A model generated the notes under the pieces. The model had not been told where the DNA came from, did not search any database, and saw nothing but the letters and a program-made list of their open reading frames with translations. The position numbers and the translations under genes were made by a program. A DNA stretch of 64,000 bases from Bigelowiella natans CCMP2755 (lineage: Eukaryota; Protista; Cercozoa), in NCBI GenBank assembly GCA_000320545.1, contig ADNK01000413.1:1-64000 (forward strand), given 5' to 3'. This document shows, piece by piece, positions 35,485-60,270 of the stretch (position 1 is the first letter of the stretch; the number at the start of each line of letters is the position of its first letter).

Positions 35485-36615
35485 TCAATTGTCACCAGAA
35501 TTCGACACATAAGGCTTCGATGCCTTCGCACTGATGTGCTTCTTAAGATCTTCGATCTCTTTACGCATCATCTTCATTTTTTCTTCCTGCTCTGCGCATT
35601 TCTTTTTGAGCTGGTCTCTATCGGCTTGAAGCTTCATGTAGGCCTCGCTTATGTCCTGCTGCTGCCGGTACCTAGGTTCATTTAAATACCGGACGCCAAT
35701 ATCCATTGACTTGGGCTCCGGATTAGACTTGATCATCCAGTCGAAGATCCAGTCATCCCGATATGCACAATTCTTAAAGAGCTCAGAGAAGAGGGAACGA
35801 AGGTATATGTAGTTTGGTTTTTGGGAGAAGCGGAGCTCTTTGCAGTAGTTGAGGTACAGTGCGAACTCCTTTGGGAAACCCTTGCAGAGGGCCTCGACAG
35901 GGATGGATTCCTTGCGGTTTCCAATCTTATCGTATTTCTCCTGTTTGGTACGAGCTTTTAGGCCCTGCCATGGGAGTTTACCCAGGTTAAAATACATGAG
36001 CATATAGCCTAGAGATTCTAAATCATCACGTCTGCTCTGCTCTATTCCATGATGGGTGCAGATGCTGGCGTAGCGAGGAGTTCCTGTGAATTTTTTTTTG
36101 TCTCGGTACCGAATGTGCTCGAGTGTGGTCGGATGCATGTAGCGCTTACTTAATCCCATATCGATGGCAAAGAGGATTTTCTTGTTGCTGTTTCTGCCCA
36201 TAAGGAAATTGTCTGGTTTGATGTCACGGTGGAGGAAGAAGCATTTGTGCACGTGCTCAATACGATCAATCAACTGAATCGCAAGCATTAGTATCGTCTT
36301 CATGCTAAATTTACGACCGCATTTTGTATATAAAGATTCCAAGCTCTCCCCTAGAAGATCCATGACCATAACGTTGCATTTGCCAGCAGTGCCACACCAA
36401 TGCACGTTTGGAATGCCTGTTCCAGATTCTAAAGCTCTGTAAACTTTGTATTCGTACGTGAGCTGAGGATACTTTGTGTTTTTATTTTCCAATTTTATGG
36501 CCACAGGCTCCTTGGTTCGGACATTTTCTCCTAAATATATATCACCAAAGGAGCCGCTGCCGATTTTGTGCTTCATGCGATACTTCGTCTTGTTTCCTAT
36601 CAAAATCTCCGCCAT
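35485..36615 (-). CDS. CSNK1: Casein kinase 1 family Ser/Thr kinase, intronless
   Basis: [48 protein letters not shown] and LPWQGLKA; the DFG motif reads DMG. Confidence 0.95.
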
Positions 36616-40859: not shown

Positions 40860-41811
40860 AGCGTGTGTTGCGAGGGTGTGCATTAATTGTTGCCATTTGA
40901 TGTGCACGCTGTCATACAAACGTTGCATGGTGCATGGCATCAATCAGCATAGACGACAATAGCGAGAATTGTGCAATGAGCAGAAAGAGAGGTAATTATT
41001 GTGGCACTCAATGATGCTCGCTACGTGCACACGTTCAGCTACGCTAGTACGCCACGCGCACGCGCATGCACATCGATCATGGCGGCAATTCTATTTGTAT
41101 GCGCAGAACGTTAATTGCGTGCGTGCACATGCTAATGTGTACGTGGAATGCACCAACACGACCAATGATGCAATCGATGAATGCCGCGTGCGCGTTGTTG
41201 ACGCCGACAGCAGGGGCGGGCACGCTAGCTAACAAGCACCGGAGCCTTGCAAGAGCTAGACAGCATGACAGCTGCAAGAGAGACGGACACAATGATCAAT
41301 CAAATTGAATTTGTTCAATGACTGGTCATCCTCATGTAGCTGTGCAGCAATGCTAGAATGCAGCGGCTAAGCGATGATGACAGACACAGTGACATCACAC
41401 ATGCAGAACACAAGTCACATCACAAGTGATCAAGTGACATCATGCACATGGCGGAGGAGCACACATTGCATTCACATGTCCATCATTCAGCGCTGTTGAT
41501 GTCAAATCTGTTGGTCTTCGCTGTGATCGAGCGTGTGACATTTCATGCAACAATGTGTTGTGACGACCACAGCTGTGACGATGGGCAACAAGTGGGGCGG
41601 TGCTCAGTGAGCAGTCTAGCAGTGCTGCTCTGGCTAGCTAGCACTGCTGCAGATTGCTAGATTGCCTGTGCGTGGCTGTCACTTGTGGCCGCCAGCTGGA
41701 GCACTGCAGAGCGCCATGCCAGAGCGCATGCATGCTGCAGCTCGCGGACACGTGCATGCGCATGCACTAGCGCTAGCTAGGACAATCAGCCACATGGAAC
41801 GCGCGTGTGCT
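40860..41811. other. TpA-depleted decayed repeat-like DNA flanking the left TIR
   Basis: Few TA outside CTA/TAG; contains a copy of the short dispersed repeat at 41278-41368. Confidence 0.6.
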
Positions 41812-42169
41812 GCAGCAGACTGCTGCACCATGCCCCACATTTGATTTCCCATCTGCCGTCAGTGGGGGAATGACACAAAATTTTCATTTCAAAAATTCAC
41901 CCACTGACGACCCACTGCTGAACTGAATTGCTAGAATGACATGGCAAAATTGCACGAGCATGACACGTCAAGTGTTCTGCATTTGATTTCCCATCAGCAA
42001 TCAGTGGCAAAATGTGCGAAAATGCGCAACATGAAAGCTTCACCCACTGACGACCTGCTGCTGAACTGAATTGCTGTGATGACATGATGAAAATCACAGG
42101 CACATCCCATGTGTTTTGTGAAAACAATCTTTGTTGAAAATGACATGGCAAAATCCACAGCAGAGCATC
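41812..42169 (+). repeat. Left terminal inverted repeat (~358 bp, with two ~143-bp internal subrepeats)
   Basis: Reverse complement of 60271-60627 with about 26 differences by eye. catttgatttcccatc recurs at ~41838 and ~41980. Confidence 0.92.
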
Positions 42170-42209
42170 GTTGAAAACACTGCAAACTTGTTCTCACGCA
42201 AAGTGATGA

Positions 42210-42941
42210 ATGAGAACATTTGAATCAAAAAAAGGAAAACCATCAGATGAATGGCTGACTGAAAAACAATTTGAATCTTTGAAAAACAAAAGATTTTTGC
42301 ATGTGACATCATCAAACATGGACACACACAAAAGAAAACCCACTGAAGAACTTGTTGTCAAACTTGGGCAAGGTGAGGGAACTCAGCCAGCATCAAGATT
42401 GAAAGATTGCATTTCACATCATGGTTGCACTGACTCCAAAAGACCTTGGATGGGTTGCAAATTGCATTGTTTGTTCGCAACAGAAAAGAATGAAAATGTG
42501 GCAGCAACAAACTCCATGGTTCATGAATGTGAACTCAAATCAAAACAGCATGCTGAAAAAAACAACTTGTTGGTAGACAGAGGCGATGAAAGGACATTGA
42601 CAAGATCAAGTGAATTGATTGGAACATTGGATTGCAAACAATTTGAAAAACTCACAGACATTGAGTCAAAACCTGCATGCAATTTGCGAAATGAAAAGCA
42701 GAAATGCATCGTTGAAATGTCAGACCATGCAAACAAAGCAAAGAAAAATGACCATCAAAAACCTGCTACCTTCAAAGTGAAACACAGTGATGGCAGTGCA
42801 GAAGGAACAATTGGAAATGTGTCACCTAATGATGTCAAATCAAAGAATTTTGACAAGTCATTTAGAGAACATTGTGAAAAATCAAATGACAAAGACAACA
42901 TCAAATTAGAAGATGAACATGTGAAACACCTTGGCATTTGA
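42210..42941 (+). pseudogene. Hypermutated viral ORF, possible T5orf172/GIY-YIG-like nuclease domain
   Basis: FL(H=Y)V...VVKLGQG...PASRLKD(C=Y)...RGDE pattern; zero Tyr in 243 aa. Confidence 0.4.
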
Positions 42942-43133
42942 TCATCTACTGAAACATCATGCACAGCCCATTTTGCATCTTCATCAAAATCAAATGGTTT
43001 TTTCATGATTTGCAATTTGACAAACAAATCACCATTTTCTGTCATCAACAACTTGTCAATTTTTTGCAATTTGTTCATCCTTTCTTCTAATTTTTTTGAT
43101 CGTTTCTCTAATTCCATTGTTTTCAACAAACAT

Positions 43134-43337
43134 TCAATGAGATTTGTTGTCATTGATGACAACAACAAAAATCACTTGCTCACCACACTTTTCAGTTGCC
43201 ATCTCGTGTGCTTCTTTGAAAGTTTCACCTGACACAAGGTTCATTCTCATGGAAGCCATGTGTTTTTTGCCATGATGCTTGCCATGAGCTGCTAATGAAT
43301 CTTTCTGTCTTTTGGTTGATTTTTTTGATGCCATCAC
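43134..43337 (-). pseudogene. Small basic His-rich viral hypothetical protein
   Basis: TKRQKDSLAAHGKHHGKKHM...GETFKEAH resembles a small protein seen in aquatic viruses (recall, not searched). Confidence 0.4.
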
Positions 43338-43352
43338 ATCACTGTGGATTTT

Positions 43353-44084
43353 TCATTTTGACAAAGGAACATCGTGTTTGTCAACCATCTTTTTGTCAAT
43401 GTTGCGAGATGGTCCACCAAACAGAACAGAACACAGACGGGCTCTGCTCCAAGACTCGGCACTTTGATTTGGACGACTTCCTCCAGAACAGTGAGCTCCT
43501 TTGCCTTTGTTCACAATTTCTCTTGAAGATTTCAAAGGAACATCCAAAACTTCAGTCACATTGGATGAGGATGCATCACCTTTGAAACACTTGTCTGCTT
43601 TTTGTGTCCATTTGGATTTCTTGCTTTTGAAACTTCTCAACTTTGGTCTGTTTCTGCCATGAAAAATGCTCTCTGTTTGTTTTTCCCCATCTTTTTTGCT
43701 CAACGATTTGGGCACATGCTTCTCATTGATGCTCATCTCACATTTTTTAACAGCATCTTGAACTGCTTTGCTGTTCATCCATTCACATCCGGCATCTGAA
43801 CCCCACGAAAGCCAAGCCACAGCACCTCTTCTCTCATTTCTTTGTGATTGGTCCATCGGTTTGCCATCATTTTTCCATCTGTCGCATCCTGGTTTAGATG
43901 TGCATTTGTGACGAGCGAACCAAGCATTCACAACAATGACATCTTCAACATCCATGGCATCGTCATGTGCTAATTGTTCAGCTCTTTTCATTCCTGTTTC
44001 AATCGTGCCTTTCCAATTCAGCTTCTTTGATTTCAATGCTATTCGGGCTTTCTTCCTCACTTTCATTGGCATTTTCAATTTCAT
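43353..44084 (-). pseudogene. Hypermutated two-domain viral ORF: phage-like RA.QLA/AW..WG.D.G domain followed by a DUF5824-like giant-virus domain
   Basis: (H=Y)VPKSLSKKD, RPKLRSFKSKKS and KGKGA(HC=YY)SGGSRPNQSAESWSRARL; zero Tyr. Confidence 0.6.
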
Positions 44085-44653
44085 TGTTCAATTTGAGAAG
44101 ATTTTTTGCATGCTTTTCACAAAGAATGTGTTTGTCATGACATTTTTTGATCACAAATCCATCACAGAAGGGACAACACATTTTGAGAATGTGTTTGTCA
44201 CAATGTTTTTTGGTCACAAATCCATCACAGAAGGGACAATGTGTTTCATCGTGTTTCGTTTCATCTTCATGACAATCTCTCGCACAAGCATTGATGCAAT
44301 CTCCATCATCTGTTCCATGTTGTTTCATGTCTCTACCTGGAACATTTTCATTGACACATTTTCTTTTCATTTTTTCTTCAGCTGTTAGTTCTGCTTCTTT
44401 CTTTCTTTTCTGATGAACAGATATTTTTTTGGCATCCTTTTCCAATGACTTCAAAAGGTGAACCTTCAACATTTGATTCATTGCAAGTTCTGCCACCAAT
44501 CTTGACTAATCGGTTGGTGTTGATGTTGCATCCATGACCATTTTTCATCTCTTTGTTTTCAATTTTAGCAAAAAGCTTTTGCAAGTTCTTTTTTTGAAGA
44601 GAACTAAACTTTCTAAATTTTTTCAAAAAACTTTTCATTGTGTCATCAGACAC
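43999..44653 (-). pseudogene. Hypermutated, frameshifted viral ORF with two tandem CPFC..H zinc-finger-like repeats
   Basis: CPFCDGFV(T/I)KK..DKHI occurs twice; 63-bp-period direct repeat at 44123-44243. Confidence 0.5.
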
Positions 44654-45778
44654 ATCATCATCACAGATTAGATTTCTTCAAGTGAGAATTGAACGAATGA
44701 AAATTTGAAAAAAAACCACAGTTTTTTTGAGAGTTTTGAAACGACCACAAAATGGTTCAAAAAGAAAAAATCTGCAGCATCACAATGAGCGAAAATGTTG
44801 TTGGCGGAGCAACTCTAAATCCCAAAGGATTGAACAAAATGTTCAAATCCAAAACTTCAGGATGTGTGAAAGAATGCCACAAAAAGAACTCTCAAAAATG
44901 GCTACGAAAGGCAGAATGCAAAGCCTGCAATTGCATGATTGGATTAGCATCACTGTCTCGTCACAAAAGAACTGAAAAAAACACATGCTCAATGGTGATC
45001 CTAATCCATCCGAAGAGCAGAAAAAATTTGTAGATGATCATGAATGTGTCAAGTTCAGGAAATGCAAATTGGTCAAATTGGAAGAAAAATCAGATTTTGT
45101 CATGAAGAAATCAGAAGAGTTAGGAAACAAAACACAATGAATGCAATTTTGTGATCATCATGATTGCCATCATGATCACAAAATGACATCATGAACAAGT
45201 TGAACATTGACAGTTTTTGTTTCATGACCATTGATGTCATCATTGTGATTGTCAATGTCCTCAAATCCATCATGCCAAGATGGTCCACCACATTGTTCTT
45301 TTTCTTCAACATCTGGTTTAGCAAGACCAAGTTCAATCAATGTGTCTCCATTTTGTCCCTTGTGATTGTCAATGTTCTTCACAAATGCTTCTACAGTTTC
45401 ATCATCAACCTTTGGTTTTGTTGGAACTTTTTCATCCTTGTCATCATTGCTCATCACAACATGACTGTGCATTTCACAATGATTTCAAACGAACATTGAT
45501 CAAATGATGCTGTCATGCCATCAACTTTTTTAGGAACCTTTGGAATTTCTTTTTTCTTCTTTTCCTCCTCTTTCATTTTTGGTTTACGAACATCCTCAAA
45601 ATGTTTCTTGTTGTGTTCACTTGTCTTCTCTTTTTTTTCTTGACATCTCTTCTTTTGGTGTGCTGTCATTTTTTCTCTGTTTGGTTTGTGACATGCTTTT
45701 TGTTTTTCCTCATCAGACATTTGTCAAAACAGTTTGGATTTTTGCATTTGAAAAAAATGATCTCAACTCAATTGACAT

Positions 45779-47008
45779 GTGAGCAATTTGAGAGAAACAG
45801 AAAAAAGGTTCACACGACAGTGGAACAATTGTTTTCCATTGATGGAAGAAGATGGAAAAGGAAATGAAGTTCCAAGTGAAGTCAATGTTGATCATCTTCT
45901 TTGGATGATTTTCAATGAAGACTCCATTGGAGGTGACAGAAAACTTGTGGTGAGAAAAACTGACACTGCGGTGATTGGTCCAATGACAGAAACAAGAACA
46001 CATTTGTCGAACATGGAAAAGAATTCAATCACATGTGCCAATGACAACGGATTTGACATCAGTGATCCAACAGAAGATTCAAGAACACCACCAAGAGCAC
46101 AAACACCGCCAAAAATGACAAGAACACCAGCACCACCACCATCTAGAAATGGGTCAAGATCATCAACACCATCGCCAAGAGGACCAGCACCAAGAGGACC
46201 AGCACCAGGAGGACTAGCACCAGCACCAGCACCAGCACCAGCACCAGCACCAGCACCAGAAAACAGACAACAACAGATGGCACAAGAAGCAAAACTACCA
46301 GCATTAGCAAGATCATCTGGTCGTGATGTTCCAACACAAGCAACACCATCACAAAGATTTGACCAACAACCAGGTTTCAGTCCAACCCCAGTTGTTCCTG
46401 CAACGGCACCTGCTGGATTTGAATCAACACCAGATGACACAGGTGAGAAAAAATTGACAGATTCATCTTTGAAAGAAATGAAAGAACATGATGATTTTCA
46501 GAGACCGCTACCTGATGTTTCAGAAAGACAAAATGCAATCTGTCAGACCAAGATGAGGCAAGGATTGATCCAAGAAGCAACTCATCCATTCGGAGGTAAA
46601 CGTGATGTGACCAATGAATCACAAATCAATTGCAATGCTGATCATGAAAACCCATTCATCAAATCTCAAGCAAGATTGAAGGTGAAAGAAATGGATGACA
46701 CGAGCATCACACACAAACCTCAATTGCAAGAGGCCATTGATGATGCCAAACCATCTGCTAAATTGCCAGCAAAGATGGCCAATGTGAAAGCACTAAAAGT
46801 TGAAGTTCCAGTTGAACCTCCGTTCAAAGCAAGAGGTTTTGATCCAAAGGAATTGCGACCTGCATTTGAAATCAATTGCACTCACGGCATGGTGCCTCAT
46901 CACATGTCTCAAGCATGCAAAAAGAAGAAAGATGAAGTAGCAGATGTGCATGCTGCTCACATCAAATCAAAACAAATGAAAGATGCTTCTGATTTGTTTT
47001 TTCAATGA
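45779..47008 (+). pseudogene. Hypermutated viral ORF with Pro/Ala (GCACCA)n low-complexity linker, unknown function
   Basis: 409-aa ORF with zero Tyr and an APAPAPAP repeat at ~46215-46260. Confidence 0.5.
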
Positions 47009-47033
47009 AAATGACTCAAAGATGTGAACACAC

Positions 47034-47639
47034 ATGAACACAATGAAACATGTGCCAGATCATGCCAAAGGAAAAATTTGCAAACTGCACATGTCAGGAA
47101 ATGAAGATTCAATTTGTCATGGTTCTGCCATTCAAAGTTCAAGTGTGAGATCATCTGGTCATAGAAAAAATTTGAAATGTTGGAAAAAGGGTACAGGTTC
47201 ATTCATGACATCATTTGAATCATTGGAAAATGAAAATGCAATCACAACCCTTGTTGAAAATTTCCCTTGTGATTCTGAACATGAATTAGAAGCCAGAGAA
47301 CGATTTTGCATGGAAAACAACAAATGCATCAATGAAAATGCACCCACAAGAACTGCAAAAGAATGGAGAGAAACAAACAAAGAACGATCAAAACAATGCA
47401 GACAAGATGACAAAGAACGAATGGCAAAACCAAACAAAAAATGTCATGAAGATGACAAAGAATTGTCAAAGGAAAAAAGAAAAGAACACTTTGCGAATCA
47501 CAGAAAAAAGAACAAAGAAAAATTTGAAGAAAAAATCAAATGTCCCTTCTGTGGTTGTTCTGTTGGAAAATCCAATTTGAAAAGACATCAAAGAACCAAA
47601 AAATGTTCAAAAGCACAAGAAGAATTCAAACAAAAATGA
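47034..47639 (+). pseudogene. GIY-YIG endonuclease (NCLDV/PLV type) with C-terminal zinc finger, hypermutated
   Basis: GKI(C=Y)KL...I(CH=YY)GS...R..GH, LVENFPCDS..EL.ARERF(C=Y) and CPFCGCSVGKSNLKRHQRTKKC. Confidence 0.8.
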
Positions 47640-47665
47640 ATGTTTGAAATGATTGTCGTTTCATT

Positions 47666-48451
47666 GTGATTGTCATCATCCATTGCAATCACAATGTGAC
47701 CAATTCTGAAAAGGGCAAATGCAAAAAATTAGACATGAAACCAACAATGACAACCAAAAAAAAACAGATCCACAACAATTGCAACTTGACACCTTCGTTT
47801 CCAAACAGATGCTCATTCACAGCTCCAACAGGAAGTGGAAAATCAGTGGTGATGGCAAATTTGTCAACTCGTAAAAGACATTCAAGAAACTTCTTTGATG
47901 TTGTTTTGTTTCACTCTCCAAACGTTCACTTTGAAGACGAACGTGCAGAAACAAAGGCAAAAAATGAAAAAGCAGAAATGAAATTTGAAGAAAAGTTCAA
48001 AGAGAAAGAGTTTGGAGCCATGGTTCATGAAGTGATGCGAGAACAAAAAGAACTAAAAGACAAAAAGAAACACATGAAAAAAACATTGACAATCATTGAT
48101 GATTTCGCTTCAGATGAAAAAGTGATGAAAAGTGAAACATTGAAAGATTTGTTCTTTGCTGGTGGAAAATGTGGTGCATGTGTTTGGATCACCAGTCAGT
48201 GTTGCAAAATTGTTTCTCCTGATGTTCGCACAAATGCCGAACATTTGATTGTTTTTAGCAGACAACCTTCAACTGAATTGAAAAAGATGGCTGAAGAAAT
48301 GTCAACAGGCAAATGCACTGAGAAAAAAATTGTGGAAACACTTGATGAAATGTCTTCTGTGGATCATTCATTTCCACATTGCAATCGCAAGCAACCAATG
48401 AATGAAAGGTGCATGATCAATTTTCAAAGTTTCATGAACATCCAAACATGA
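47666..48451 (+). pseudogene. A32/FtsK-HerA-type viral genome-packaging ATPase, hypermutated
   Basis: Walker A APTGSGKS; Walker B TIIDD; LFFAGGK...WITSQ..KIVSPDVRTN motif region; zero Tyr in 261 aa. Confidence 0.85.
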
Positions 48452-48707
48452 TCAATGTGGATGAACTTTTGCCAGAATCACATTCAAAAAAATCAGGAAC
48501 AAATCATCATCATTTGACAGTCGTCCAAAAAAAAACAGCAAATCCTTTTTCACATTCAAAAAAATCAGCTGTCATGGTCCCAGCTGTCAAACCTGCTGGT
48601 TTTTTTGCGAGAGAATTTGTGAGAAAAGAAGTGCCTGTGAGCATCAAACGAACATTTGAAAGGTGTCAAATGTCAATTAATTGTCATCTAAACGTTGACA
48701 ATGACAC

Positions 48708-49271
48708 ATGGGAAATGACAATTCTTCACCACCAAAACCAAAACCAATCCACATTCCAAAGCCACATTTTCCAAAACCAAAACCAATGCATGTTCCAAGA
48801 ATTCCCACAGAAAAAGCAACTAAGCCTGTGAACAAAGGAACAAAAAAAGGAGCAAATCATCTTGAAGACAAACTGACACATCCAGTTGCTGCTGCAAATG
48901 AAGCTGAAGGAGCATTGAGTGAATTGGATTCTGTGTCTCACGGCAGTCTTGGTGTTGTGCATCAGGGATCTCAAGTTGTGTTTCCACAATTTGGATTGGC
49001 CGTCACATTGGCCACTGTAGCAGATGAAATGGCTCACAATGATGGTGAGTCATCAAAAAAAACATCAAAAAACATCTCATCAAATCAGGCTACAGGAGGT
49101 GTTTGTGGTGATTGTCAAAGTGTCAGAACCATTGAAAAATCAGAGCTTGTGACTGAAATGGAAAACAAATTCAATGCAGATTCACACGACTCACCAGATG
49201 TTGATGGAGCAATTCCAGTTTCTGTGGAAGGCAAAATTTCTGTTGATGATGCGACCAGAAAACTCAGATGA
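48708..49271 (+). pseudogene. Hypermutated viral ORF, unknown function (MGN start, PK repeats)
   Basis: 187-aa ORF preceded by TCTA at -21; zero Tyr. Confidence 0.5.
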
Positions 49272-49683
49272 ATCACTTTTTCTCATCTTCTTTGATTTCA
49301 GGACTTGGCAGAAATGTTCCAAGTGTCAGAATGACAACGTTTGAAAAAGCATTTCTTTCTGCTACATTTTTTGCTGTTGCAACTTGAAGCACACTGAATG
49401 TTGAAACACTGAACATTGCACCAGATTTCAGGAAAAACTCTGAAGCCCTTTTGTCAGAAGTTGAACAACAAGACTGGTGAGCATCAATGTGTTTTTCATC
49501 CTCTGATTCTTTTCTGTGTGGCATCTCTTCCATCATTCTGTCTTTGCATTCTTCAGAATCATTCATGTCTGCAACTTTTTGTTGTTTTTCATCTGCTTTG
49601 TGTTCGATGGATTGTGGAACAATCATTGCAAACAGTCACAAACAAAATGCCACAATGATTTTTTTTCTGTTCTTGTGATGACA

Positions 49684-50578
49684 ATGGGATCATTTGATGA
49701 GATGAAAGATGGATTCAAAAAGGCTGTTAATGATGTGCAAAAATCATCAGGGCATGCAACAAAGCAAATCAAAAAAGACTTCACAAAAGCAGGAGATGCT
49801 GTCAAAGATGTGTCTGTCATGGCAGGTGATGAAATCAAAAAAGGAGCCCATGAAGTTGGAGATCAACTGAAAAAACAAGAAGTCCAACAGGCACTCGCAG
49901 GGACTGGAATTGCTTTAGCTAATGTTGCTACTGGAGGGGCATTTGCTCCAGAATTAATGGCAGGTGGATTAGCAATTCAAGGTGCCATTGAGTCAGCACA
50001 TTCAAAATCTTTACCTCATGACACTGTGCTGCAGGCAGGAACCGCATGTGCCACTGGTGAATTAGATTTTAACAAAAGAGGACCAGGTGTTGGTTCATTT
50101 AGCGAAGGTATTTCTAATTTGAGAGAAGAAGGTGTGAAACGATTTGATGGTGTTGAAGATGAATTATCAGATGAAGCTATGAAAAGACATGATGATGTAA
50201 AAGGCAAAGCATCAGCAAGATTAGGATTTGATCCAACACAAATGCAATCTACAGATGAAGCTATGGATTCATTAAAAGCACAAATTGACAAAAATAGAAA
50301 TATTAGAGCAACAGCTAATGGATTTAAGAAGTGGAAAAGCATTAGAAAATTTAACAAACAAAGCAAAAAGTGAATTAAAAAAAGAAGTAAGTAGTCAAGG
50401 CAATAAAATACTAAATGATGTTTTAGGTAAAGTGTCTCAAAAGAAAAGCAAAGTGAAAAAAGCCATGAAAAAAGTTAAGAAGAAGATGAAATCTTCTAAA
50501 GGCAAAATGGCTGATGTCATTAAAAAGGTGAAACAAAATCAACAGAGATACAGAATGTCAAGTGGCATTGTGAATTAA
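49684..50578 (+). pseudogene. Viral ORF with Gly/Ala hydrophobic segment and basic C-terminus, probably frameshifted near 50290-50370
   Basis: MGSFDEMKDGFKK...ALAGTGIALANVATGGAF; the overlapping ORF 50285-50578 continues with K-rich sequence. Confidence 0.45.
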
Positions 50579-50646
50579 AAAAAAAACACATCATGAAAAA
50601 ATTACATTCGTTTTGATACAATTTTTTTCATCTACACATTGTTAAC

Positions 50647-52311
50647 ATGGATGCAATTAGTGAAACTACCGATGTTAGTAGATTTCCAGAAATCGACTAC
50701 AGTTTACCCCCTATGGATAAAATTTTCATTGATTCAGTCTCTCATTTTAGAGAAGAGATGAAAAATAGTAACAATGCTAAAAAAGCGAATACCAAAATGA
50801 GATTTTTTGTTCCAGCTCAACAAAGAGCAGTAGACCCATCTGAATTACATTTTCAATTAAATGTTGCTGCCAGAACAGCTGGAGATGCTGATTTACCAGC
50901 GGTTGACCAATTAAGATTAAGACTTGCTGAAGGTGGAGTTCATTCTCTCTTTAGAGAGATGATCATTAGAGATGGTAGAGGTAACATCATTGAAAAAATT
51001 AACAACTATGACCTTGTTACTAAAATTTTACAAGATACTTTGTTGACTAAAGAAGTTAAAAATAATTTGTTAAATGTGGAAGGTGTTCATGATGACCAAG
51101 GATTGTTCAACACAGTTCATAGCAAATTTGATATTACTGGTAACACCTTAGAATTAAAAGCACCTGTGGCTCAGGTCGTAGCTGATACTCTTCCAGCAGG
51201 TGCGGCTGATTTTCCCGCAGCCAATGCTGCTCCTGTTGCTGCTGTGACCACTCCCGCTTCACCATCAAGAGTACTTGGTGTAGGAACTCAATTCTTAACT
51301 GAACTAAGACCAGGTTCTGTTGTTAAATTCAATGGAAACAGTTACACAGTTGCCCATGTTGTATCTGACACAGAATTTGTATCTGCTACTAACATTGCTG
51401 CTGATGTTGCTGCTGCTAACATTGTTGCTGGTAGAGATTTTGTTGAAGGATTACTTGAAACAGAAAGTCGTTACAAAAAATTCCATCACGATGGACTTTT
51501 TACAGCAGATGGAGCTGTTCATTGCTTTCAGCCATGCTGCTCTGGGTTTTCATCTCAAAACAAATACCTTCATCTTGATCATTGTGGTGGGTTAGAATTT
51601 GAATTTACTTTAGATAGCAATGCCATGATTTTCGATGATGCTAATGCAGCAGGTAATGCCAATATTTTCATTAAACAAGGATATGTTCATCACACTGCTC
51701 TTGAATTTTCACCAGTTGTTGAAGCTGCTCTTGCTAAAGCATATGTGAGAGGTTTATCTATGAGTTTCCCTGTGTACCATGTAGTTAGTGGAACACAAAA
51801 TGCTTCTACCTCTGTTTCTCAGGAATATCAAGAAAGTTTAGCAATTCTTGAAATGGTTAAAATTGTTAGTAGACCAACTGGGTTTGATGCAAATGCTGGA
51901 GCATCATTTTTCTTTGAAGATCTAACCAGTGCTAAAAGAATTTACTGGGAGATCAACAAACAAAGATTTACTGAGTGTGGCAATGATGACATTTTACCTC
52001 AAGTTGTTTTTGTGAACAACAGAATCGGTAAAAATCTATTAGGAGATTACAAACATGCTACAATTTCTTATGGAGAATTCAAAGAAGCAGGTAAATCTGC
52101 TTTAATTTTCAATGCGCAAAACTACAAAGAAGGTAATTACACAGGAGTTAACACCAACCGAGCAACTATGAGACTTAAAATTGAAGGAGGAGATGGTGTT
52201 GGTTCTTTACAACCTGGTATTGCTAATCAAGGTAGACAAATCGATGTGTTAATGATGCACGAGCAATACATTATGTTAAAAGATGGAGAAAGTGTGACAG
52301 TTCGTAGCTAA
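50647..52311 (+). CDS. Major capsid protein (PLV double jelly-roll type) with internal insertion
   Basis: MRFFVP...VDPSELHFQLNV and GGVHSLFREMIIRDGRGNIIEKINNYDLV match the N-terminal PLV MCP pattern; 554 aa; lies directly upstream of the penton-like gene. Confidence 0.78.
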   Translation: MDAISETTDVSRFPEIDYSLPPMDKIFIDSVSHFREEMKNSNNAKKANTKMRFFVPAQQRAVDPSELHFQLNVAARTAGDADLPAVDQLRLRLAEGGVHSLFREMIIRDGRGNIIEKINNYDLVTKILQDTLLTKEVKNNLLNVEGVHDDQGLFNTVHSKFDITGNTLELKAPVAQVVADTLPAGAADFPAANAAPVAAVTTPASPSRVLGVGTQFLTELRPGSVVKFNGNSYTVAHVVSDTEFVSATNIAADVAAANIVAGRDFVEGLLETESRYKKFHHDGLFTADGAVHCFQPCCSGFSSQNKYLHLDHCGGLEFEFTLDSNAMIFDDANAAGNANIFIKQGYVHHTALEFSPVVEAALAKAYVRGLSMSFPVYHVVSGTQNASTSVSQEYQESLAILEMVKIVSRPTGFDANAGASFFFEDLTSAKRIYWEINKQRFTECGNDDILPQVVFVNNRIGKNLLGDYKHATISYGEFKEAGKSALIFNAQNYKEGNYTGVNTNRATMRLKIEGGDGVGSLQPGIANQGRQIDVLMMHEQYIMLKDGESVTVRS

Positions 52312-52428
52312 TTTCATTTTTCTATCAATCATTCCAATCCTTTGGGATTTGGAGTTGCTTCGCCAACATTTGTTGTTAAATTCCACCAAAATTTATATCA
52401 TGAAAATTTATTTCTAATATAAATTAAT

Positions 52429-53145
52429 ATGAAACAACACAAAATTTATTTTAATAGCAAAGATAGAATTACTGGAACAACCAATAATTTAAATTATCAA
52501 TTAAATAGTGTAATTGATAATGTATCTTCTATTTCTATTACAAGAGCAAGATTTCCAATTACTTGTTACAATGTGTCAGCTAAAAATAACATTTTAGAAA
52601 TTGAGAATAGTTCTGGAAACAAAACAAGTATGGAATTAACAAAACAAAATTATGGTGCTACTGAATTAGCAACAGAATTACAAACTAAACTTTCAACTAA
52701 TGCCTCAACAGTAGGAACTTTTACTCCTGTGCACAATGCTAAAACAGGAAAATTTAGCACAGGTTGTAGTAATAGTTTCAAAATAATTAAAAACGAATGC
52801 TCTAAATTTTTAGGTTATAATGACACTACACCTCTTTCTACATTGCATGTAGCAGATAATATGAGTAATCTATCACCAAAACCTGTTTACATTCAAACTG
52901 ATTTACAACTGGATACAGAATTAGCAGGTCAATTGTCAAGTGTTGTGCATGAAGTCTCTGGCGATGTGTCTTTTGGTAGTATCTCATATGATAATGAGAA
53001 ACCAAGTGAAAGGATTGAATTAATGAAAAAAAAGAATGTAAGCAACTTAAAATTTACACTTGTAGATGGTAATGGAGATGAAATAGAAAATAATGGTACA
53101 GATCATTCTATGATGGTATCTTTGTTTTGTCAGACTAAGGAATAA
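52429..53145 (+). CDS. Minor capsid (penton-like) protein
   Basis: IYFNSKDRITGT..L...IDNVSSISI..ARFP...YNV...NN, NY...ELA.ELQ and LKFTLVDGNG..IENNG.D.S match PLV/virophage penton patterns. Confidence 0.75.
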   Translation: MKQHKIYFNSKDRITGTTNNLNYQLNSVIDNVSSISITRARFPITCYNVSAKNNILEIENSSGNKTSMELTKQNYGATELATELQTKLSTNASTVGTFTPVHNAKTGKFSTGCSNSFKIIKNECSKFLGYNDTTPLSTLHVADNMSNLSPKPVYIQTDLQLDTELAGQLSSVVHEVSGDVSFGSISYDNEKPSERIELMKKKNVSNLKFTLVDGNGDEIENNGTDHSMMVSLFCQTKE

Positions 53146-53175
53146 GAAAAAAATATCTAATCATTATTAATAAAA

Positions 53176-54738
53176 ATGAGTGTTAGTATTACAGGTGAAA
53201 ACATCCCTAACCCTAATGTATCTGGTGGAACAAACAATGATAACAATTCTTCAGCAGGAGGCATAGTTGGGATTACAAGCAATTCGAATGACATTAATTT
53301 TGATGAAGGAGTTTCTGTGAATGGCATAAAATTTCAAAACACAGGAAACCAAAACGGACTTTTTATGGGTGTTGATTTGTCTGGTAATTCGTCTATGGAA
53401 ATGGTCTCTCCAACAACCTACATTGATTTTGTACATCAATTAGGTTCTGATTATACGAATCGTGTTCTGTCAAAAAATGACGGTATTCACTTCACAGGGG
53501 ATTTACACATGGGCATTATTAGACCTAATTATGTATCTTCAAGTACAATAACATCTACGAATGGAACTTTTAATGCTATTAATTTAGACGGTGTCCCTTT
53601 GAATCCAAGAAATTGTTTAGTTCACGGGATTACATCTGACATTGTAAGTGGAAACATGAAATTTACTATGAATTCTAATTTTCAAGAAAAATTAACAACA
53701 TTAGGCGATTATGATCTGTCAAACAAAATAACAAATGATGCTACAAATGGTTTGATTGTTAATGCTAATAATGTTAATGATGCAAGTGTTTTATCAACCA
53801 AAGTATCAAAATTTTCTTCATCTGTATCAGGAAAAGAACCAAAAATATTAAGTATTGACAATGATTTACAATTAGCTAATCATTCAGGTACACCTCAAAT
53901 GCGATTCAAAGATAACAGTGGCAATGTTCAAATTTCATGTAATGAATTAGAGTTAACAGATAATGTAGGGGAGGTAAAATTAAAGATCTTAGAAAAAATA
54001 AATAATGTAGAAACAAAAACAACAACAACAGAAAACAAACTTAATCCAATTACTTCATCTAACAACGAACATCAATTTTCAAGTTCCATTTTTGTAAATG
54101 GTTTGAGAAGCACAACACAACCTCATATCGATGGTATTCATTTAGGAAAAGATGTTCATAATGGTAGTAGCATTGAATTCGTTAGTCCAACATGTTACAT
54201 TGATTTCGTTCATAACAATTCAGGGACAGATTATGCGAATCGTATTTTATCCAATAATGATGGAATTCACATCACAGGGGATTTGCATGTTTTCAATACA
54301 AAAATTGCTGGAGATGTTACATTTCAAGGTTCATTGTTATCGAACACATTGACAGATTTAACAAATGGATTAAATGCAATTGAAGCATTAGCTATGAGCA
54401 ATAGCAACAATGTTCAAAATGGATTTAGCAATGTAAATGTCCCTATTGTAAGAGTCATTAATAATTCATCTACTGTTGTTTTCTTTGAAAGTGGTAATCA
54501 GCCACCTTTTTACAATCCTCGTGTAGAAAATGGTAAATCTACCGTTTTAGAACATGCTTCAAATGTTGTGTCATTAAATGTTCGTTCATCATCTCCATCA
54601 TGTAATTCATTTAATCTCACAGCAGACAAAGCAGTTAGCATAAATTCTGGTTCTGATCCTAATATGCCAACTGGGGCACAACATAGAATCGAATTGAATG
54701 GTCTGAATTTTGTAACCTTTACAATTTTCAATCCATAA
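53176..54738 (+). CDS. Asn/Ser/Gly-rich putative virion fibre protein with a duplicated ~50-aa module
   Basis: SSMEMVSPTTYIDFVH...DYTNRVLSKNDGIHFTGDLH is repeated as SSIEFVSPTCYIDFVH...DYANRILSNNDGIHITGDLH. Confidence 0.6.
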   Translation: MSVSITGENIPNPNVSGGTNNDNNSSAGGIVGITSNSNDINFDEGVSVNGIKFQNTGNQNGLFMGVDLSGNSSMEMVSPTTYIDFVHQLGSDYTNRVLSKNDGIHFTGDLHMGIIRPNYVSSSTITSTNGTFNAINLDGVPLNPRNCLVHGITSDIVSGNMKFTMNSNFQEKLTTLGDYDLSNKITNDATNGLIVNANNVNDASVLSTKVSKFSSSVSGKEPKILSIDNDLQLANHSGTPQMRFKDNSGNVQISCNELELTDNVGEVKLKILEKINNVETKTTTTENKLNPITSSNNEHQFSSSIFVNGLRSTTQPHIDGIHLGKDVHNGSSIEFVSPTCYIDFVHNNSGTDYANRILSNNDGIHITGDLHVFNTKIAGDVTFQGSLLSNTLTDLTNGLNAIEALAMSNSNNVQNGFSNVNVPIVRVINNSSTVVFFESGNQPPFYNPRVENGKSTVLEHASNVVSLNVRSSSPSCNSFNLTADKAVSINSGSDPNMPTGAQHRIELNGLNFVTFTIFNP

Positions 54739-54782
54739 TTCGTTTAGAATGAAAAAAAAATACATAGTCATATTGTAATCAT

Positions 54783-55163
54783 GTGGATAATGTTAGTAAT
54801 GTTAGAGAAACTTTAAAAGGTTATAGAGTTACACAATTGAAAGAATTGTGTCGTGAAGTAGGAACATCTCAATGTGCCAGAAACAAAAAAACTTTAATGG
54901 ATAGATTGACACCTATAGTTCTAAAAAGTGCTGGATATGAAGTCGTTTCTATTGAAAAAGAAGAAGAGGTAAAAAAACCAGCTAAAAAAATCAAAAGAGT
55001 TCCAGTTAAAAATAGTGTTAAAAAGAAAGAAGAGGAAAAAGTAGAGGAAGAAAAAATTAGTCTTGAATCAAAAGAAGATAGTAATGATGAAAAAGTAAGC
55101 ATAGAAATAGAAGAAGATGGTAATGATGAAAGTTCAGTAACAGAATCAGATGTAGAAAATTAA
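54783..55163 (+). CDS. Small SAP-like motif protein with acidic tail
   Basis: YRVTQLKELCREVG...NKKTLMDRL resembles SAP/HeH DNA-binding motifs. Confidence 0.45.
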   Translation: MDNVSNVRETLKGYRVTQLKELCREVGTSQCARNKKTLMDRLTPIVLKSAGYEVVSIEKEEEVKKPAKKIKRVPVKNSVKKKEEEKVEEEKISLESKEDSNDEKVSIEIEEDGNDESSVTESDVEN

Positions 55164-55355
55164 CTCTGTTCATGTAATGGGAGGAACAATAATTGTTTTA
55201 TTAACTTTAGGTGCATGTGTGATGATTGGACACATATTTGGTAGAGTGTCGGCATCAATTACTGATTTAGACCCTACTAACGATTATTTGATTGTGAATT
55301 AAAAAATTATTTTTTTGAAATTTTGTTTATAAAAATTATCTAAATCTTTATAACT

Positions 55356-55964
55356 ATGAGTTCTTCTACCGCACATTTCCGTAATTCAGTTTTAATTGAT
55401 GGATTACTTACCGGTCCTACCATTGTTAGAATAGACACCGAAAAAACTGCTGTTCTCAGCAGTCTTAATCAACAAATTTCTGACTTTCAAACAGCAGAAA
55501 CAAACAATGCTCAAGCAAGAGCAGATTTGCAAAATCAAATTGATGATGCTAATGCTTCTATGACTCAGGCTATGGGTGATTTAACCCAACTTGTTAATGA
55601 CAACAAAGCAGACATTGAAGGTAAATTAGCAACAGAAACTAATGAAAGACTTTCATTAGCAAGTGAAGTAAGCAACAGAAATGCATTTGTAGATGGTGAA
55701 ATTACCAGACTTGACCAACAACATGCTGATGATGATGCTAGACTTGCAGCTGTTGAAGCAACACAAGCTACTTTTAATTCAGATGTGGAATCTAAAATTC
55801 AAGAGAGAATTGATGCTCACAATGCTGATCTTGATAATACCCTTCCTCGTTTAGCAAAATTAGAAGAGTGTTTAGAAACAGATGAATCTGATCCTGCTAA
55901 TCCAGTCGTAAGAATTAAAGGAGGTGTTAAATTTGAAGTAAGTGGTGATTTCGTCCAAGGTTAG
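55356..55964 (+). CDS. Coiled-coil putative virion fibre protein
   Basis: Heptad-like Q/D/A-rich helix; C-terminus VRIKGGVKFEVSGDFVQG; TCTA at -17. Confidence 0.55.
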   Translation: MSSSTAHFRNSVLIDGLLTGPTIVRIDTEKTAVLSSLNQQISDFQTAETNNAQARADLQNQIDDANASMTQAMGDLTQLVNDNKADIEGKLATETNERLSLASEVSNRNAFVDGEITRLDQQHADDDARLAAVEATQATFNSDVESKIQERIDAHNADLDNTLPRLAKLEECLETDESDPANPVVRIKGGVKFEVSGDFVQG

Positions 55965-56011
55965 ATTGCAAATGTGATTTAAACAACATATAAAAAATCT
56001 AACAATTAATA

Positions 56012-56258
56012 ATGATGTCTAATATTAAAAGGTGGTGGTGCTTTTTTCAAAGAAACACCTGCAATAGCAAACAATGTAGTAGGTCAAACAATAGATACTA
56101 TTAATCAACAATTAAACGATAATAATACACAAAACACAGAAAATAAATTACAACTTGATTTTTCAAAAGAAGTTTTTATAATAGACAAAGAAAACAAAAC
56201 TATTACGATAAATCCTGAATGTAAACTCATTGTGCCTAATGATTTAATTCAAGGATAG
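56012..56258 (+). pseudogene. Short paralog of the preceding ORF, frameshifted after the start (not in the ORF track)
   Basis: The frame reads KGGGAFFKETP...TITINPECKLIVPNDLIQG*, ending like ...SGDFVQG*. The ATG is out of frame across an A-run. Confidence 0.45.
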
Positions 56259-56297
56259 TTCGTTTAAAAATAGTATAGTTTTTTGTAGTCATAAGTA

Positions 56298-56490
56298 ATG
56301 ACTATAAGAAAAGTGTATTTTTATGGATTAACATGTTTAAATACAAGAGAAACATATATAGGTTCTACTACTATGGATCCAAAATTAAGATTACAAATGC
56401 ATGTCGCTAATTTTAGAGCACATGAAAAAGGTTTTGGTAATTTTTGCTCTTCGTATCAAATTTTAAAAAGAGATAATTATATGTTTAAAG
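56298..56490 (+). pseudogene. N-terminal half of a GIY-YIG endonuclease, truncated
   Basis: VYFYGL...TYIGSTT...RLQMH...CSSYQIL, followed by an abrupt switch to helicase sequence. Confidence 0.7.
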
Positions 56491-57744
56491 TTAAACAACG
56501 AATGTAAATACATAAGAAAATTTGATATTTCACCACATGATGTTATATGCTTTGATGAGGTTTATATATATTCACTACATCAACTATCAAAAATTAAGTT
56601 ATTTATGGATAAGCATGTTGATAAAAAATTTATTGCTACTGGTGATTTAGCTCAATTGGATCCCATTGAAAACGAATATCTGTTTAACAACATCAAAGAC
56701 CTTGATGTTAGAACAACTGAAGCTATGAATGATATGTTCCCTAATCAAATCACTCTTAAAATCTGTAAGAGAGTAAAAACAGACGAGGAAAGAAATACTC
56801 TTGCACGATTAAAACAAGAAATATTTGATGTAAAAACTAAACCATTTGATGTGCTAAAAAAATATTTTAAAGTTGTTGAAAGTATGGATAAAGTAAAGAC
56901 TCTTAACAATATTACCTTCTACAACTTTAGATCCCGTTCAGTAGGTAAGTATATCCACGGTCTACAATAGAAACCGAGAAAAAAAGTTTATGTAGATGGT
57001 ATTTGCTACTATGCTGGTATGGAGATTGTGTGTAAAAAATATAATAAGAAACCAAAACTATATGTGAACTATGCTTATGAAATTGTTAAAGTAAGTAAAA
57101 AAGAATTTGTAATACAGGATGTATGTGATATGGAAGAAATAAGAATTCCTATAGAATTAATTAGTAAGCATTTTAGATTATCATATGCCTCTACCTGTCA
57201 TAGTTTCCAAGGATTATCAGTAGATGGCCCTATCACCGTATTCGATACTAACACCTGTAGAATTAATCGCAAGTGGCTCTGGACTGCTATAACTCGTTCA
57301 ACTGACCTATCACAGATACAAATATATCAGCACAGCGATAAAGAATGCTACAGATTAAAAGAAAGTATGATTTCTCAAAAACTACGAATGAAAGTATCTT
57401 CATATGAATCTCAGGACAAAAGAGCTGGTAGAACTTGGAAAGATAAAGAACATATTGATGAGGAATGGATAAAAAGAACTGTTAATAATCATCCACAATG
57501 TCCTGTGTGTAGATGTGGATTTACTGCTGATAATGTTTCTGTGGATAGAATTGATAATGCTCAACCTCATCTGTGGAATAATTGTAGATTGACTTGTGTG
57601 GAATGTAATCTTAGTAGAAATAATCAACAGACTTACCCAGCATTTGGTGAGTACACCCCTCAGGATGTTGAGTTTGAAGATGGCTTTGAGGATCAATGGG
57701 TGAAACCTGGGTACGAAAACACCATCACTGGGCTGGAGCTTTGA
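56491..57744 (+). pseudogene. C-terminal fragment of an SF1 helicase plus HNH-like domain (PLV replication protein), with in-frame stop at 56968-56970
   Basis: VICFDEVY (Walker B), ATGDLAQLDPI, YASTCHSFQG, WTAITRS, then CPVC...VDRIDNAQPH..NNCRLTCVECN. Walker A is absent. Confidence 0.78.
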
Positions 57745-57991
57745 GGCATCGTGTGCCCCGAAAATTTGACATTTAATGTCTTTGCCACATCAGCCACACG
57801 TGTCAGTTCTTCACCGGAGACTCTCCCCGCTGCTGGGCATTCCGGGATGAAAATGGGAGTCCCTAATCTTCGGACACTAACGGACACTAACGGGCAATAC
57901 CGGTAATACTCCCGGTAATGCTCTTTCCGGGGATTCGCCGCAACGAGAGTCTCCCGTGAAGATCTTCACTCCAGACTCGAAATCAGACTCG

Positions 57992-60183
57992 ATGAAGCGT
58001 AGTGGATCTTTTGACGAGAAAAGGAAGGTAGATGAAAGAATCCCTAGCAGGAGAAGTTCGAAAGCACAGGTACTTATCCTACGAGGCTTGCGTTCGGGAG
58101 CTTAAGCTTTGATGTGTTCTCAGCGTTCTGAGGTATGGGGAAATCAGATGGACTCTATTAGCAAACAAATCGAGAAATTGAGGGATGAAAGAAAAGCTTT
58201 GAGCATCGCTTGGGCAACGGAGAAGAATAAGGAGAAAGAAGAGGCGCTCAAGGGTGCTATTGACAAATTGGACGAGGAAATTCAGGCGAAGGAGGCAGAA
58301 CTGAAGGAAACGATAAAGAAATTCGAGGAGGCAACCCAAGGTTATGAATTCTGTTAACATCTGAGGAAACAATCGGTGTGCTGAGATATTTTTGCGTGTG
58401 TGTTCAGCCATGGAAATTGAGGAAAGCGGCAGGGGGGGTGATGCCCAATGTCTCTGTGCAAATAATCCATTGTTCTAATTTTATTGTGATTTGATTTCAG
58501 GGGAGAAACGCAAAAGCATATCGGATTACGAACGAGGAAGCGAAACAAAAGGTGACTAGACTCATCCTCTCTAAGTATCTGTTTGATAGTCCCGCTTTAC
58601 GTGGATACACAGGCAAACGATTCAAGATTGACACGGATGCCGAAGAATTTTTCCAAGCTTTGAGAGACACTCCGTTCACAAAAGGGACTGCAATGCAGCT
58701 GGTGCGCATAACGAAGAACATCCTCGTACCTGGGCATCGTGCTAGTTGGATTCGGGGGTCCAGGCACCCTGTTACTCTTTTCTACCGCAAGGCATTTTCA
58801 GAAGCAGTACGCAGATTTCGAGAATGTTATCAACTTCGCCGTGAGGGAAAGTCGAGCATTGATTGCTGTATACTCTCTGGGCAAAGTGGTATAGCCAAGA
58901 GTGTGGCCTTTTTGCTAACGTACATCAAGGTGGCGCTTAAAAATGACGAGAAGGTTGCGTTCTATTCCGTGCCAGAGGGTATCCTTTACTGCATCTACGT
59001 CGAGAACGGTACAGTCAAGTGTTCAACATCTGTAGTTACCCCCTTAACATTCCACAGTGAAGAATGGAAAAGCTTTGACTCTACTTCGACACACCTTGTC
59101 GTCGATCCCGAGAACGGATTCGGGCACCTAAATGTCAACATCACAAAAGCCTTTGTGGTAGTGGCAAGCTCGCCCAATAAGGAGTGGAAGCAATTCGAGA
59201 AACTCCTTAAGGCCGGAACGAAGAAGCGGGATCTCACCTTGTATGCGGATGTCATCCAAGAAGATGAATTCAACGATATTTCTGCGGGAAACAATGAGAG
59301 TGGCGGGGCGGATGGAAACTGTACTGTCAAGGGCTTAAAAAGCCGATCCGAGATAGCCGGGGGGATGTTGCGGCACATTGTGGACGAGCAAAAGTTCAAG
59401 AAGTTTCAAGACTCCCAAGACCACATGTTGCGAATGTTTCAGGGCAAGATTGGCGAAAACGTGGAGATGATACAACCTAGGGATGTCGCTTTACCAAGTT
59501 CCGTGTTCTGCATCCGCCCCATTCTTAAAGACGGTTCGCACACTAGTTCGGATTTTGTCCTGGATTTCCTGAGCCCTTATGTAGAATCCAGAGTGGTAGG
59601 GGCGCTTGCCGAGGAACAGTCTAAGCAGAGTGAAAGTATGTCTGGTTTAGAGGCAGAAAGAAGGTGGTTTCACCTCATAAAGAATGGGGGAAATTTTGAA
59701 GGCCGACATGTCGGCTCACATTTGCCAGAAGAATTGAAAGGCAAGACTATCACTGTCTCATTTAGTCGACACAAACGAGTGATTCACCATCGCGAAAATA
59801 GTAAGGAAGAAAAGAATAAGTGCTTGGAGGAAATCCGCGAATTGAAGGATTCGAGCACGCTGGTCATTTGCCCTCCGAACTACACAAACATAGATGGTGC
59901 TTCAAGTGCTGAGGTGCTGCATCAGATGGCTAAAGGAAATGTTCACGACTTTAAAGTCAAACACAAAGACGAGGTTCTTGTGGATACGAAAGTTGTCACG
60001 ATTTACTACTACACTTTGGAGAAGCATTATCATACATTCCGTGTGAATTTCGTTTACAAAGACGTGTCAAAATCTGACCAGGAAGCGTGGAAGAAAACCT
60101 GGCACAAGCACTTGAGGTTCGTAGTCGTAAAACTCGATCCGGTAAGATTTTGGGATAAATTAAAGAAAGCACTTGGAAAATGA
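57992..60183 (+). CDS. Crinkler/RHS-like effector gene (N-terminal coiled coil, P-loop NTPase, REase-like C-terminus), spliced, inside the TIRs
   Basis: ILSGQSGIAKSVAFLLTY, LVVDP, VVVASSP, GGMLRH and PPNYTNIDG...HQM...H motifs; GT-AG intron 58070-58123 joins in phase. The splice path into 58501 is not fully resolved. Confidence 0.6.
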
Positions 60184-60270
60184 AAGCGAAATCCGAAAGG
60201 TTAAAGCGATCATTAGCGATGAGTGAGGCGCACACTACTGTGGCTAGAATTCAAGATGTAGCGATGACGT

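Follow-up and report, generated by a model that had tools for sequence, protein, structure and literature searches.

In fungal RIP, C is changed to T at CpA, which creates TpA; sequence duplication sets the process off during the sexual cycle, via a RID-type methylase. A hypermutation of TpA to TpG/CpA in integrated viruses has been measured in Bigelowiella natans, and the comparison with RIP has already been drawn (Mettrop et al., bioRxiv 10.64898/2026.01.13.699255). That preprint measured two regions, one inserted from a giant virus (Rho TpA 0.45) and the other a virophage region rich in TpA. The process was ongoing at ~6e-7 per site per generation in only some lines, all GC-ward changes fell at TpA, and the main target was single-copy and mutated in cultured clonal lines. 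The preprint lists 231 new mutations. An ADAT2 was named there as a candidate on motifs and predicted fold only.

The window analysed here, the whole 64,000-nt stretch from contig ADNK01000413.1 of B. natans CCMP2755, resembles the system of Mettrop et al. in the TpA to TpG/CpA change and in having integrated viral DNA as its target. It differs from the regions measured there in containing a Polinton-like virus that has almost reached the end state (Rho TpA 0.05–0.13). TpA hypermutation is already described for the lineage by the 2026 preprint, and the window is a confirmation, not a discovery. Nine consecutive 1-kb windows, 41001–50000, pass the cluster cut-offs of Mettrop et al. as recomputed here, a calculation that may differ from their formula, and the present locus may be among their 124 clusters. 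Their main text does not contain 'Polinton', 'trinucleotide', 'TAG' or 'tyrosine'; a Polinton-like virus brought close to saturation, survival according to flanking base, the contrast in load between copies of the same gene, a tract end inside the element and the small host repeats go beyond it.

As in RIP, transitions at the locus are densely packed, affect both strands of selfish DNA and fall at a single dinucleotide. The direction is opposite, with TpA lost rather than made in the window, and the preprint's single-copy main target, mutated in clonal culture, is likewise unlike RIP. With the ADAR and ADAT/TadA adenosine deaminases it shares an A read as G with U/T 5' of it, although the substrate here is nuclear DNA. 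A heritable A-to-G mutator against foreign DNA in a eukaryote nucleus is unusual, and the window shows its end state on a third virus kind, with the direction proven via natural relatives.

A Polinton-like virus depleted of TpA in its left half

The saturated tract makes up the left half of an 18.8-kb Polinton-like virus integrated at 41812–60627 and bounded by terminal inverted repeats of 358 nt that are 93% alike (left, 41812–42169, plus strand; right, 60271–60627, minus strand). Other contigs depart from the sequence at 41812. The earlier note had ended the affected viral DNA at 50300; the element instead ends at 60627, and its right half retains most TpA. The element is multi-copy and its right 4 kb is part of a more numerous family. 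A related-locus search found no relatives in viral contigs or metagenome contigs.

Between 41812 and 50300 there are 74 TpA (observed/expected 0.09), against 809 ± 19 in 200 base shuffles of the same stretch (minimum 752). Observed/expected values for the other dinucleotides were 1.69 for CA, 1.84 for TG, 1.24 for AA, 1.37 for TT and 0.90 for AT, in agreement with the near-absence of TpA amid abundant AA, TT and AT that had been noticed earlier. The count of roughly 50 given at that time holds for 41812–49900 (55) and falls short for the full stretch. About nine-tenths of the TA pairs in the left half of the virus are gone to TG or CA; per kb, the left and right halves contain 7.1 versus 90.4 TpA, 206.9 versus 139.2 TG+CA and 9.9 versus 10.4 CpG. 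The saturated tract proper (41812–49700) has 0–8 TpA per 500 nt. It is followed by a transition to lightly mutated sequence (49700–50400), within the ORF at 49516–50373 and graded over ~700 nt (0, 1, 5, 9 and 14 TpA per 200 nt).

All seven ORFs previously named as lacking Tyr do have 0 Tyr, as do two further ORFs in the tract. All nine stop at TGA, and the viral ORFs right of 50.6 kb stop at TAA or TAG in 5/5 checked. Absence of Tyr alone is no proof of saturation, because the Tyr-free ORF at 55356–55964 sits outside the saturated tract.

The Tyr-free ORFs of the left half include, on the plus strand, products of 243 aa without a family (42210–42941), 409 aa rich in Pro/Ala (45779–47008), 187 aa without a family (48708–49271) and 285 aa across the transition (49516–50373). 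On the minus strand are a 166-aa product with Cys-rich repeats (43999–44499) and a 243-aa product (43353–44084) assigned by its Pfam match to DUF5824 (E 4.4e-10), for which a search of viral contigs retrieved no relatives; the changes proposed earlier at GAYYSGGSRPN and YVPKSL in this ORF are putative. The mutated GIY-YIG nuclease-like gene (47034–47639, plus strand) encodes a protein 35% identical to P0016; the latter has a Pfam GIY-YIG match and the window copy has none. The change of GKIYK to GKICK proposed earlier is seen in this alignment. An A32-type packaging ATPase, saturated with mutation (47666–48451, plus strand), is 70–71% identical to environmental A32 proteins.

The genes of the right half include a lightly mutated major capsid protein of predicted double jelly-roll fold (50647–52311, plus strand), in which 4/15 conserved Tyr are changed. 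The model of its relative P0006 (71% identical; pLDDT 87.6) matched the Sputnik, iridovirus and faustovirus capsids in Foldseek at E 1e-14. Modelling the capsid protein of the window itself gave only low confidence (pLDDT 38), and the fold search from it was uninformative. The capsid family had no Pfam match, and no solved structure matched below E 0.1 in a profile search. From its position, the following 238-aa ORF (52429–53145, plus strand) is likely a minor capsid protein. The C-terminal part of an SF1 helicase with an endonuclease VII-like end (56467–57744, plus strand; UvrD_C_2 E 1e-6, PHROG endonuclease VII E 2.7e-6) is broken by an in-frame stop at 56968–56970. A Crinkler/RHS-like ORF of 562 codons (58495–60183, plus strand; Atlas 0.98) has host-like composition without TpA depletion and belongs to a multi-copy, transcribed family. 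RNA depth is ≤0.5 across 42.6–56.9 kb. The window proteins are present in EukProt, and their nearest named relatives are B. natans models (76–84%).

Under the definition of Polinton-like viruses taken from PMC5499653, the element agrees in its inverted ends, size of 18.8 kb, double jelly-roll capsid (via P0006), A32 ATPase (via relatives at 70–76%) and SF1 helicase (the broken C-terminal part only), and in showing no protease or pPolB among the ORFs scanned. It is unlike them in carrying the Crinkler/RHS-like ORF and a capsid family without a Pfam match. Among the ORFs scanned, no match was found to the maturation cysteine protease of virophages (Lavidaviridae) and Polintons or to the pPolB and RVE integrase of Polintons. 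No integrase or tyrosine recombinase was recognised among them either, but mutation may mask one.

Direction of change and flanking-base preference

Three comparisons, with natural relatives, with sister copies and between the inverted ends, give the direction of change, and all of them show that in this endogenous virus A becomes G at TpA on both strands. The window ATPase was compared with two environmental relatives over the 209 columns in which these agree; 41 of its 50 differences fit TA to TG/CA, compared with a mean of 12.3 and a maximum of 22 in 5000 permutations. At 11 conserved Tyr, the window copy has 7 Cys, 3 His and 1 Phe. The environmental relatives carry 10–13 Tyr in the ATPase and 23–27 in the capsid protein, and two Bigelowiella-labelled capsid copies carry 0. 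The contrary outcomes set beforehand (relatives alike, a spectrum without enrichment, an artefact) did not appear.

Among codon-initial positions, A to G was observed at 55/148 sites after T, 0/130 after A and 0/41 after G. A further 14/94 sites after C also differ, and we read these as probable sites with CA in the window and TG in the other copy. These comparisons indicate that, whichever the strand, A changes to G only where T precedes it. Sister copies have Cys in some and His in others at one and the same site, and a gene that is saturated in one copy is only lightly mutated in another. Each copy is mutated independently, and the load is set by the location of the copy rather than by gene identity. 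The A32 profile score drops as load rises, from 48–53 bits to 44.6, 25.5 and then no match; such elements are likely undercounted because they fall below family searches in this way.

The inverted repeats have 25 mismatches, of which 10 are TA in the right repeat and TG/CA in the left and 4 more are TG/CA swaps. The left repeat retains 1 TpA and the right 12, of which 11 have a 5' C or 3' G. TpA flanked by 5' C or 3' G survived ~10 times better, with CTAG lasting longest and CTAT/ATAG sites scarcely protected (2 vs 57). TAG was the least-hit target (9/43 vs 81/188, p 0.009), which is unlike ADAR, whose preference is given as 5'-UAG-3' in PMC11334849. Full protection of TAG was considered and rejected, as TAG was struck in 5/10 clean changes between the inverted ends and as protection is so slight at CTAT/ATAG sites.

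Possible causes

It is very probable that the left half of the virus was run nearly out of TpA by change to TpG or CpA, with a host nuclear enzyme that would deaminate adenine in the DNA of silent foreign or repeated stretches as the likely agent. That the hypermutation is host-driven is highly probable; the host process suggested in the earlier note is supported by the published mutation-accumulation experiment in B. natans. An ADAT2/TadA-like deaminase is narrowly favoured as the agent, and selection of the hypermutation as a defence is modestly favoured. Adenine would become hypoxanthine and then be copied as G, and a single hit would destroy its target TpA, so that a tract would proceed to a TpA-free end state. 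Genes would remain open because change at TpA creates no new stop, and alteration of ~1/5 of conserved residues would disable the proteins. Since the helicase gene is broken even in the lightly mutated half, hypermutation may have struck a copy that was already dead. No new hits in the present copy were apparent from the contigs, although with a multi-copy element these do not tell a recent mutation from a sister copy.

We tentatively propose a chromatin-guided DNA adenine deaminase with a TpA signature opposite to that of ADAR (TAG/CTA disfavoured and CTAG almost untouched), acting in bounded silent domains, sparing transcribed cargo and saturating small host repeats. If so, the CTAG share of surviving TpA would measure exposure across the genome and would give a fingerprint by which to select the enzyme in vitro. 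The flanking-base preference and the boundary are constraints for any candidate enzyme and targeting model.

An error-prone Y-family polymerase acting at silent viral chromatin could instead, while repairing or replicating DNA, place G across from T at TpA, giving A to G on both strands with no need of a modified base. Pol eta prefers A after T or A, which counts for such a polymerase at TpA. A Pol-eta-like cause is weakened, because A after A was changed at none of 130 sites; AA is also undepleted (1.24), and the preprint's GC-ward changes were all at TpA (bioRxiv 10.64898/2026.01.13.699255). A polymerase is unlikely. Somewhat less probable still is a two-step route of the kind proposed for fungal RIP, in which methylation of the A of TpA is followed by deamination or miscopying of the marked base. 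This would account for both the strict dinucleotide specificity and the confinement to chromatin domains. However, eukaryotic 6mA as described in the title of PMC7145601 sits at ApT and is tied to transcription, while ApT is undepleted here (0.90), and among the papers listed by a literature search there were no methylation data for B. natans.

Decay of 5mC at CpG would also leave TG/CA swaps between copies and a TG/CA excess, with low TpA then being intrinsic to the virus, and CpG is indeed lower in the viral part (0.28–0.44) than in host DNA (0.86). Such decay fits none of the 50 ATPase and none of the 20 capsid differences, CpG per kb is equal in both halves and the environmental relatives are Tyr-bearing; CpG decay is refuted as the main cause, and the reading as a whole is extremely improbable. 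The chance that the pattern is an assembly or base-calling artefact is smaller again. The element is multi-copy and no single contig piece spans it whole, but pieces of 1075, 388 and 366 nt within the tract have 0 differences in contigs of three runs, the 1075-nt piece being letter-identical in 3/3 DNA runs. An artefact is therefore refuted for the tract and applies at most to the junction. A credible minority possibility is that the process is real and the step at 49.7–50.4 kb is the point at which recombination or mis-assembly joined a saturated copy to a lightly mutated one, not a chromatin-domain edge. Both halves exist as saturated and as light copies, the right 4 kb comes from the more numerous family and, among the pieces listed, none bridges the full transition. 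Against a join are the graded change over ~700 nt, the 93% likeness of the inverted ends and a 242-nt piece (50218–50459) with 0 differences in one run.

Flanks and small host repeats

The neighbouring host DNA had been described as normal, which is correct for more distant host genes (0.5–1.1 per kb) and incorrect for both flanks and for a separate patch. The left flank (41250–41811) and the right flank (60628–61000) are TpA-saturated repeat-like DNA in which CTAG makes up 9/11 and 11/15 of the TpA, respectively. Spread of mutation from the element into unique host DNA was considered for the flanks and rejected, as these resemble each other and the TpA-saturated patch at 27840–28900, which is 74% alike to the left flank over 107 nt. 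Small host repeats are also targeted by the TpA mutation.

TpA loss and the direction of change

Between 41812 and 50300, 74 TpA dinucleotides were counted against 809 ± 19 expected from 200 base shuffles (observed/expected 0.09), with CA (1.69) and TG (1.84) raised and AA, TT and AT near or above expectation. This confirms the earlier note's description of viral DNA nearly devoid of TpA but retaining AA, TT and AT. The seven long viral ORFs that it reported as Tyr-free each contained no Tyr, as did two more, and all nine end in TGA; the stops of five viral ORFs farther right are TAA or TAG. Relative to the lightly mutated right half of the element, the left half had 83 fewer TpA and 68 more TG+CA per kb, with the same CpG. 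CpG is low in the viral part (0.28–0.44; noted at 50400–57700), TpA-depleted or not, against 0.86 in host DNA, reflecting either intrinsic composition or methylation.

The TpA-poor tract is not an artefact of assembly or base calling, a possibility raised earlier that is contradicted by exact matches: 46921–47995 (1075 nt) and two shorter pieces had zero differences in contigs from three DNA runs. Other copies of the element were found at 80–95 % identity. Transitions accounted for 1181 of the 1481 differing places in run X1, and in the 40 difference rows listed, beside 1550 further rows, 31 lay at TG or CA of the window and two at CG.

The ATPase (47666–48451, +) differs at 50 of 209 columns where two environmental relatives agree; 41 of these differences fit TA>TG/CA and none CG>TG/CA, whereas shuffling residues among the ATPase columns gave a mean of 12.3 and a maximum of 22 fits in 5000 trials. 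Its 11 conserved Tyr appear as seven Cys, three His and one Phe. The Pfam A32 score drops with mutation load: environmental proteins reach 48 and 53 bits, a partly hit copy 44.6 and a Tyr-free copy 25.5, and the window copy gives no match. Measured against the lightly mutated capsid region of the window, codon-initial A had become G in two Tyr-free B. natans copies at 55 of 148 positions after T, compared with 0/130 after A and 0/41 after G, so that the spectrum is TpA-enriched; the 14/94 changes after C are tentatively read as TG/CA swaps. Among 25 mismatches between the inverted ends, ten pair TA on the right with TG/CA on the left and four are TG/CA swaps. The same site is Cys in one sister copy and His in another, indicating that the copies mutated independently. 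The proposed A-to-G change at TpA on both strands of an endogenous virus is thus supported, 41 of the 50 ATPase differences fitting it. In P0003, a B. natans gene model from a sister copy devoid of Tyr, the capsid reading continues through the following gene, which is what stop loss by the same process would produce.

Candidate agent and flanking-base preference

TpA hypermutation has already been described in print for the likely host (Mettrop et al., bioRxiv 10.64898/2026.01.13.699255), the only report of the process in the literature searched. In that mutation accumulation study, 231 of 302 new nuclear substitutions fell in a giant-virus insert and a virophage region (~6e-7 per site per generation there); changes were nearly all TpA>TpG/CpA, in 11 of 15 lines. 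The preprint gives 124 low-TpA clusters, likens the process to RIP and puts forward a putative ADAT2 candidate. Nine consecutive 1-kb windows satisfy its cluster cut-offs as recomputed here, so the locus may be among the clusters of its Table S10.

The earlier proposal that a host process targets adenines at TpA is supported by this published experiment, and host-driven hypermutation is considered very probable. As to enzyme class, we lean towards a host DNA adenine deaminase, which would change one strand at a time within silent domains, with hits building up over generations. Change at TpA would make no new stop codon, and therefore long frames would stay open while conserved residues change. 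An error-prone polymerase is an unlikely cause, AA being untouched, and a methylate-then-mutate route is somewhat less likely still, since ApT, the eukaryotic 6mA context according to the consulted portion of PMC7145601, is also untouched. It is plausible that hypermutation evolved as defence, a candidate function. With a helicase already broken in the lightly mutated half, mutation could come after silencing instead of being what killed the virus.

A 5' C or 3' G was present at 46 of 53 surviving TpA in 42200–49700, compared with 180 of 488 in 52300–57700 (p 1e-12). Survival was 0.29 for CTAA/TTAG, 0.19 for CTAC/GTAG, 0.025 for CTAT/ATAG and 0–0.03 for most others, taking the right half as a proxy for starting composition and with survivors that could include newly made TpA. 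CTAG made up 27 of 40 TpA in the flanks (41250–41811 and 60628–61000) and the 28-kb patch (27840–28900) versus 49 of 1241 in host DNA, an excess that may owe something to a motif proper to a repeat. Counted per strand, 9/43 TAG targets (p 0.009) had been hit, 22/70 CTA (p 0.12) and 81/188 others. TpA loss depends on flanking bases, and protection of sites with 5' C or 3' G is only partial, as five of ten clean changes between the inverted ends struck TAG. ADAR, according to the consulted portion of PMC11334849, favours UAG; here the reverse holds, TAG targets being less often hit. The preprint main text is without 'TAG', 'trinucleotide', 'Polinton' or 'tyrosine', and this context signature is not in it. 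What goes beyond that main text is the end state, a flanking-base signature and a boundary inside the element, which make the enzyme search more testable.

The viral element and the position of mutation

Terminal inverted repeats of ~358 nt (41812–42169 and 60271–60627) bound an 18.8-kb element carrying an A32-type ATPase (70–76 % to proteins with Pfam Pox_A32), a GIY-YIG-like gene, a DUF5824 gene, a broken SF1 helicase end and a 554-aa protein. The last is assigned as a double jelly-roll capsid from the predicted fold (pLDDT 87.6) of a relative at 71 % identity. The element ORFs scanned gave no recognisable protease, pPolB or integrase. Under the definition given in the consulted portion of PMC5499653, the element is classed as a Polinton-like virus. 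The closest named relatives of its capsid and ATPase are B. natans gene models, which makes this alga the likely host. The six bases on either side (41805–41810 and 60628–60633) differ as TG versus CA at two places and may stem from a single target-site duplication whose two copies mutated differently, an extra base separating the left one from the element.

Mutation load goes with position. The capsid gene (50647–52311, +) keeps 11 of 15 conserved Tyr in the window copy and none in two other copies; the ATPase keeps none in the window copy and 7 of 11 in another. Depletion tails off across 49.7–50.4 kb, the end of the saturated tract thereby falling within the element, and the step at 50 kb may instead be a join of two copies. 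The viral interior was almost silent in RNA (one run, ~6/100 of it read). A Crinkler-like ORF family at the right end was transcribed, with normal TpA and reads not assignable to the window copy. Its member within the inverted ends, a Crinkler/RHS-like ORF of a multi-copy family (58495–60183, +), has host-like GC, CpG and TpA. Inside the right inverted end, 35 reads, likewise not assignable to the window copy, carry a poly(A) end at position 60326. From ~56.2 kb onward the depth of contigs is several times higher, and 56494 is a point where others join; 56494–60627 (helicase end, Crinkler-like ORF and inverted end) seems common to a more numerous element. Depth is much greater again at the inverted ends.

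Other parts of the window

A second TpA-saturated patch of ~1.1 kb (27840–28900) closely follows the stop codon of a host gene's ORF. It has 5' C or 3' G at 13 of 14 TpA, is 74 % alike to the element's left flank across 107 nt, and is likely a small repeat family struck by the same process. A host ORF of 1242 codons (23995–27723, +) carries a long Lys/Glu/Ala repeat; its low TpA at 27.0–27.7 kb is due to codon make-up, being without a matching TG/CA excess. An intronless casein kinase 1-like gene (35485–36615, −) lies among intron-rich host genes, and 5800–22700 (−) holds the exons, with microsatellite-rich introns, of a host gene named dynein heavy chain-like from its translation.
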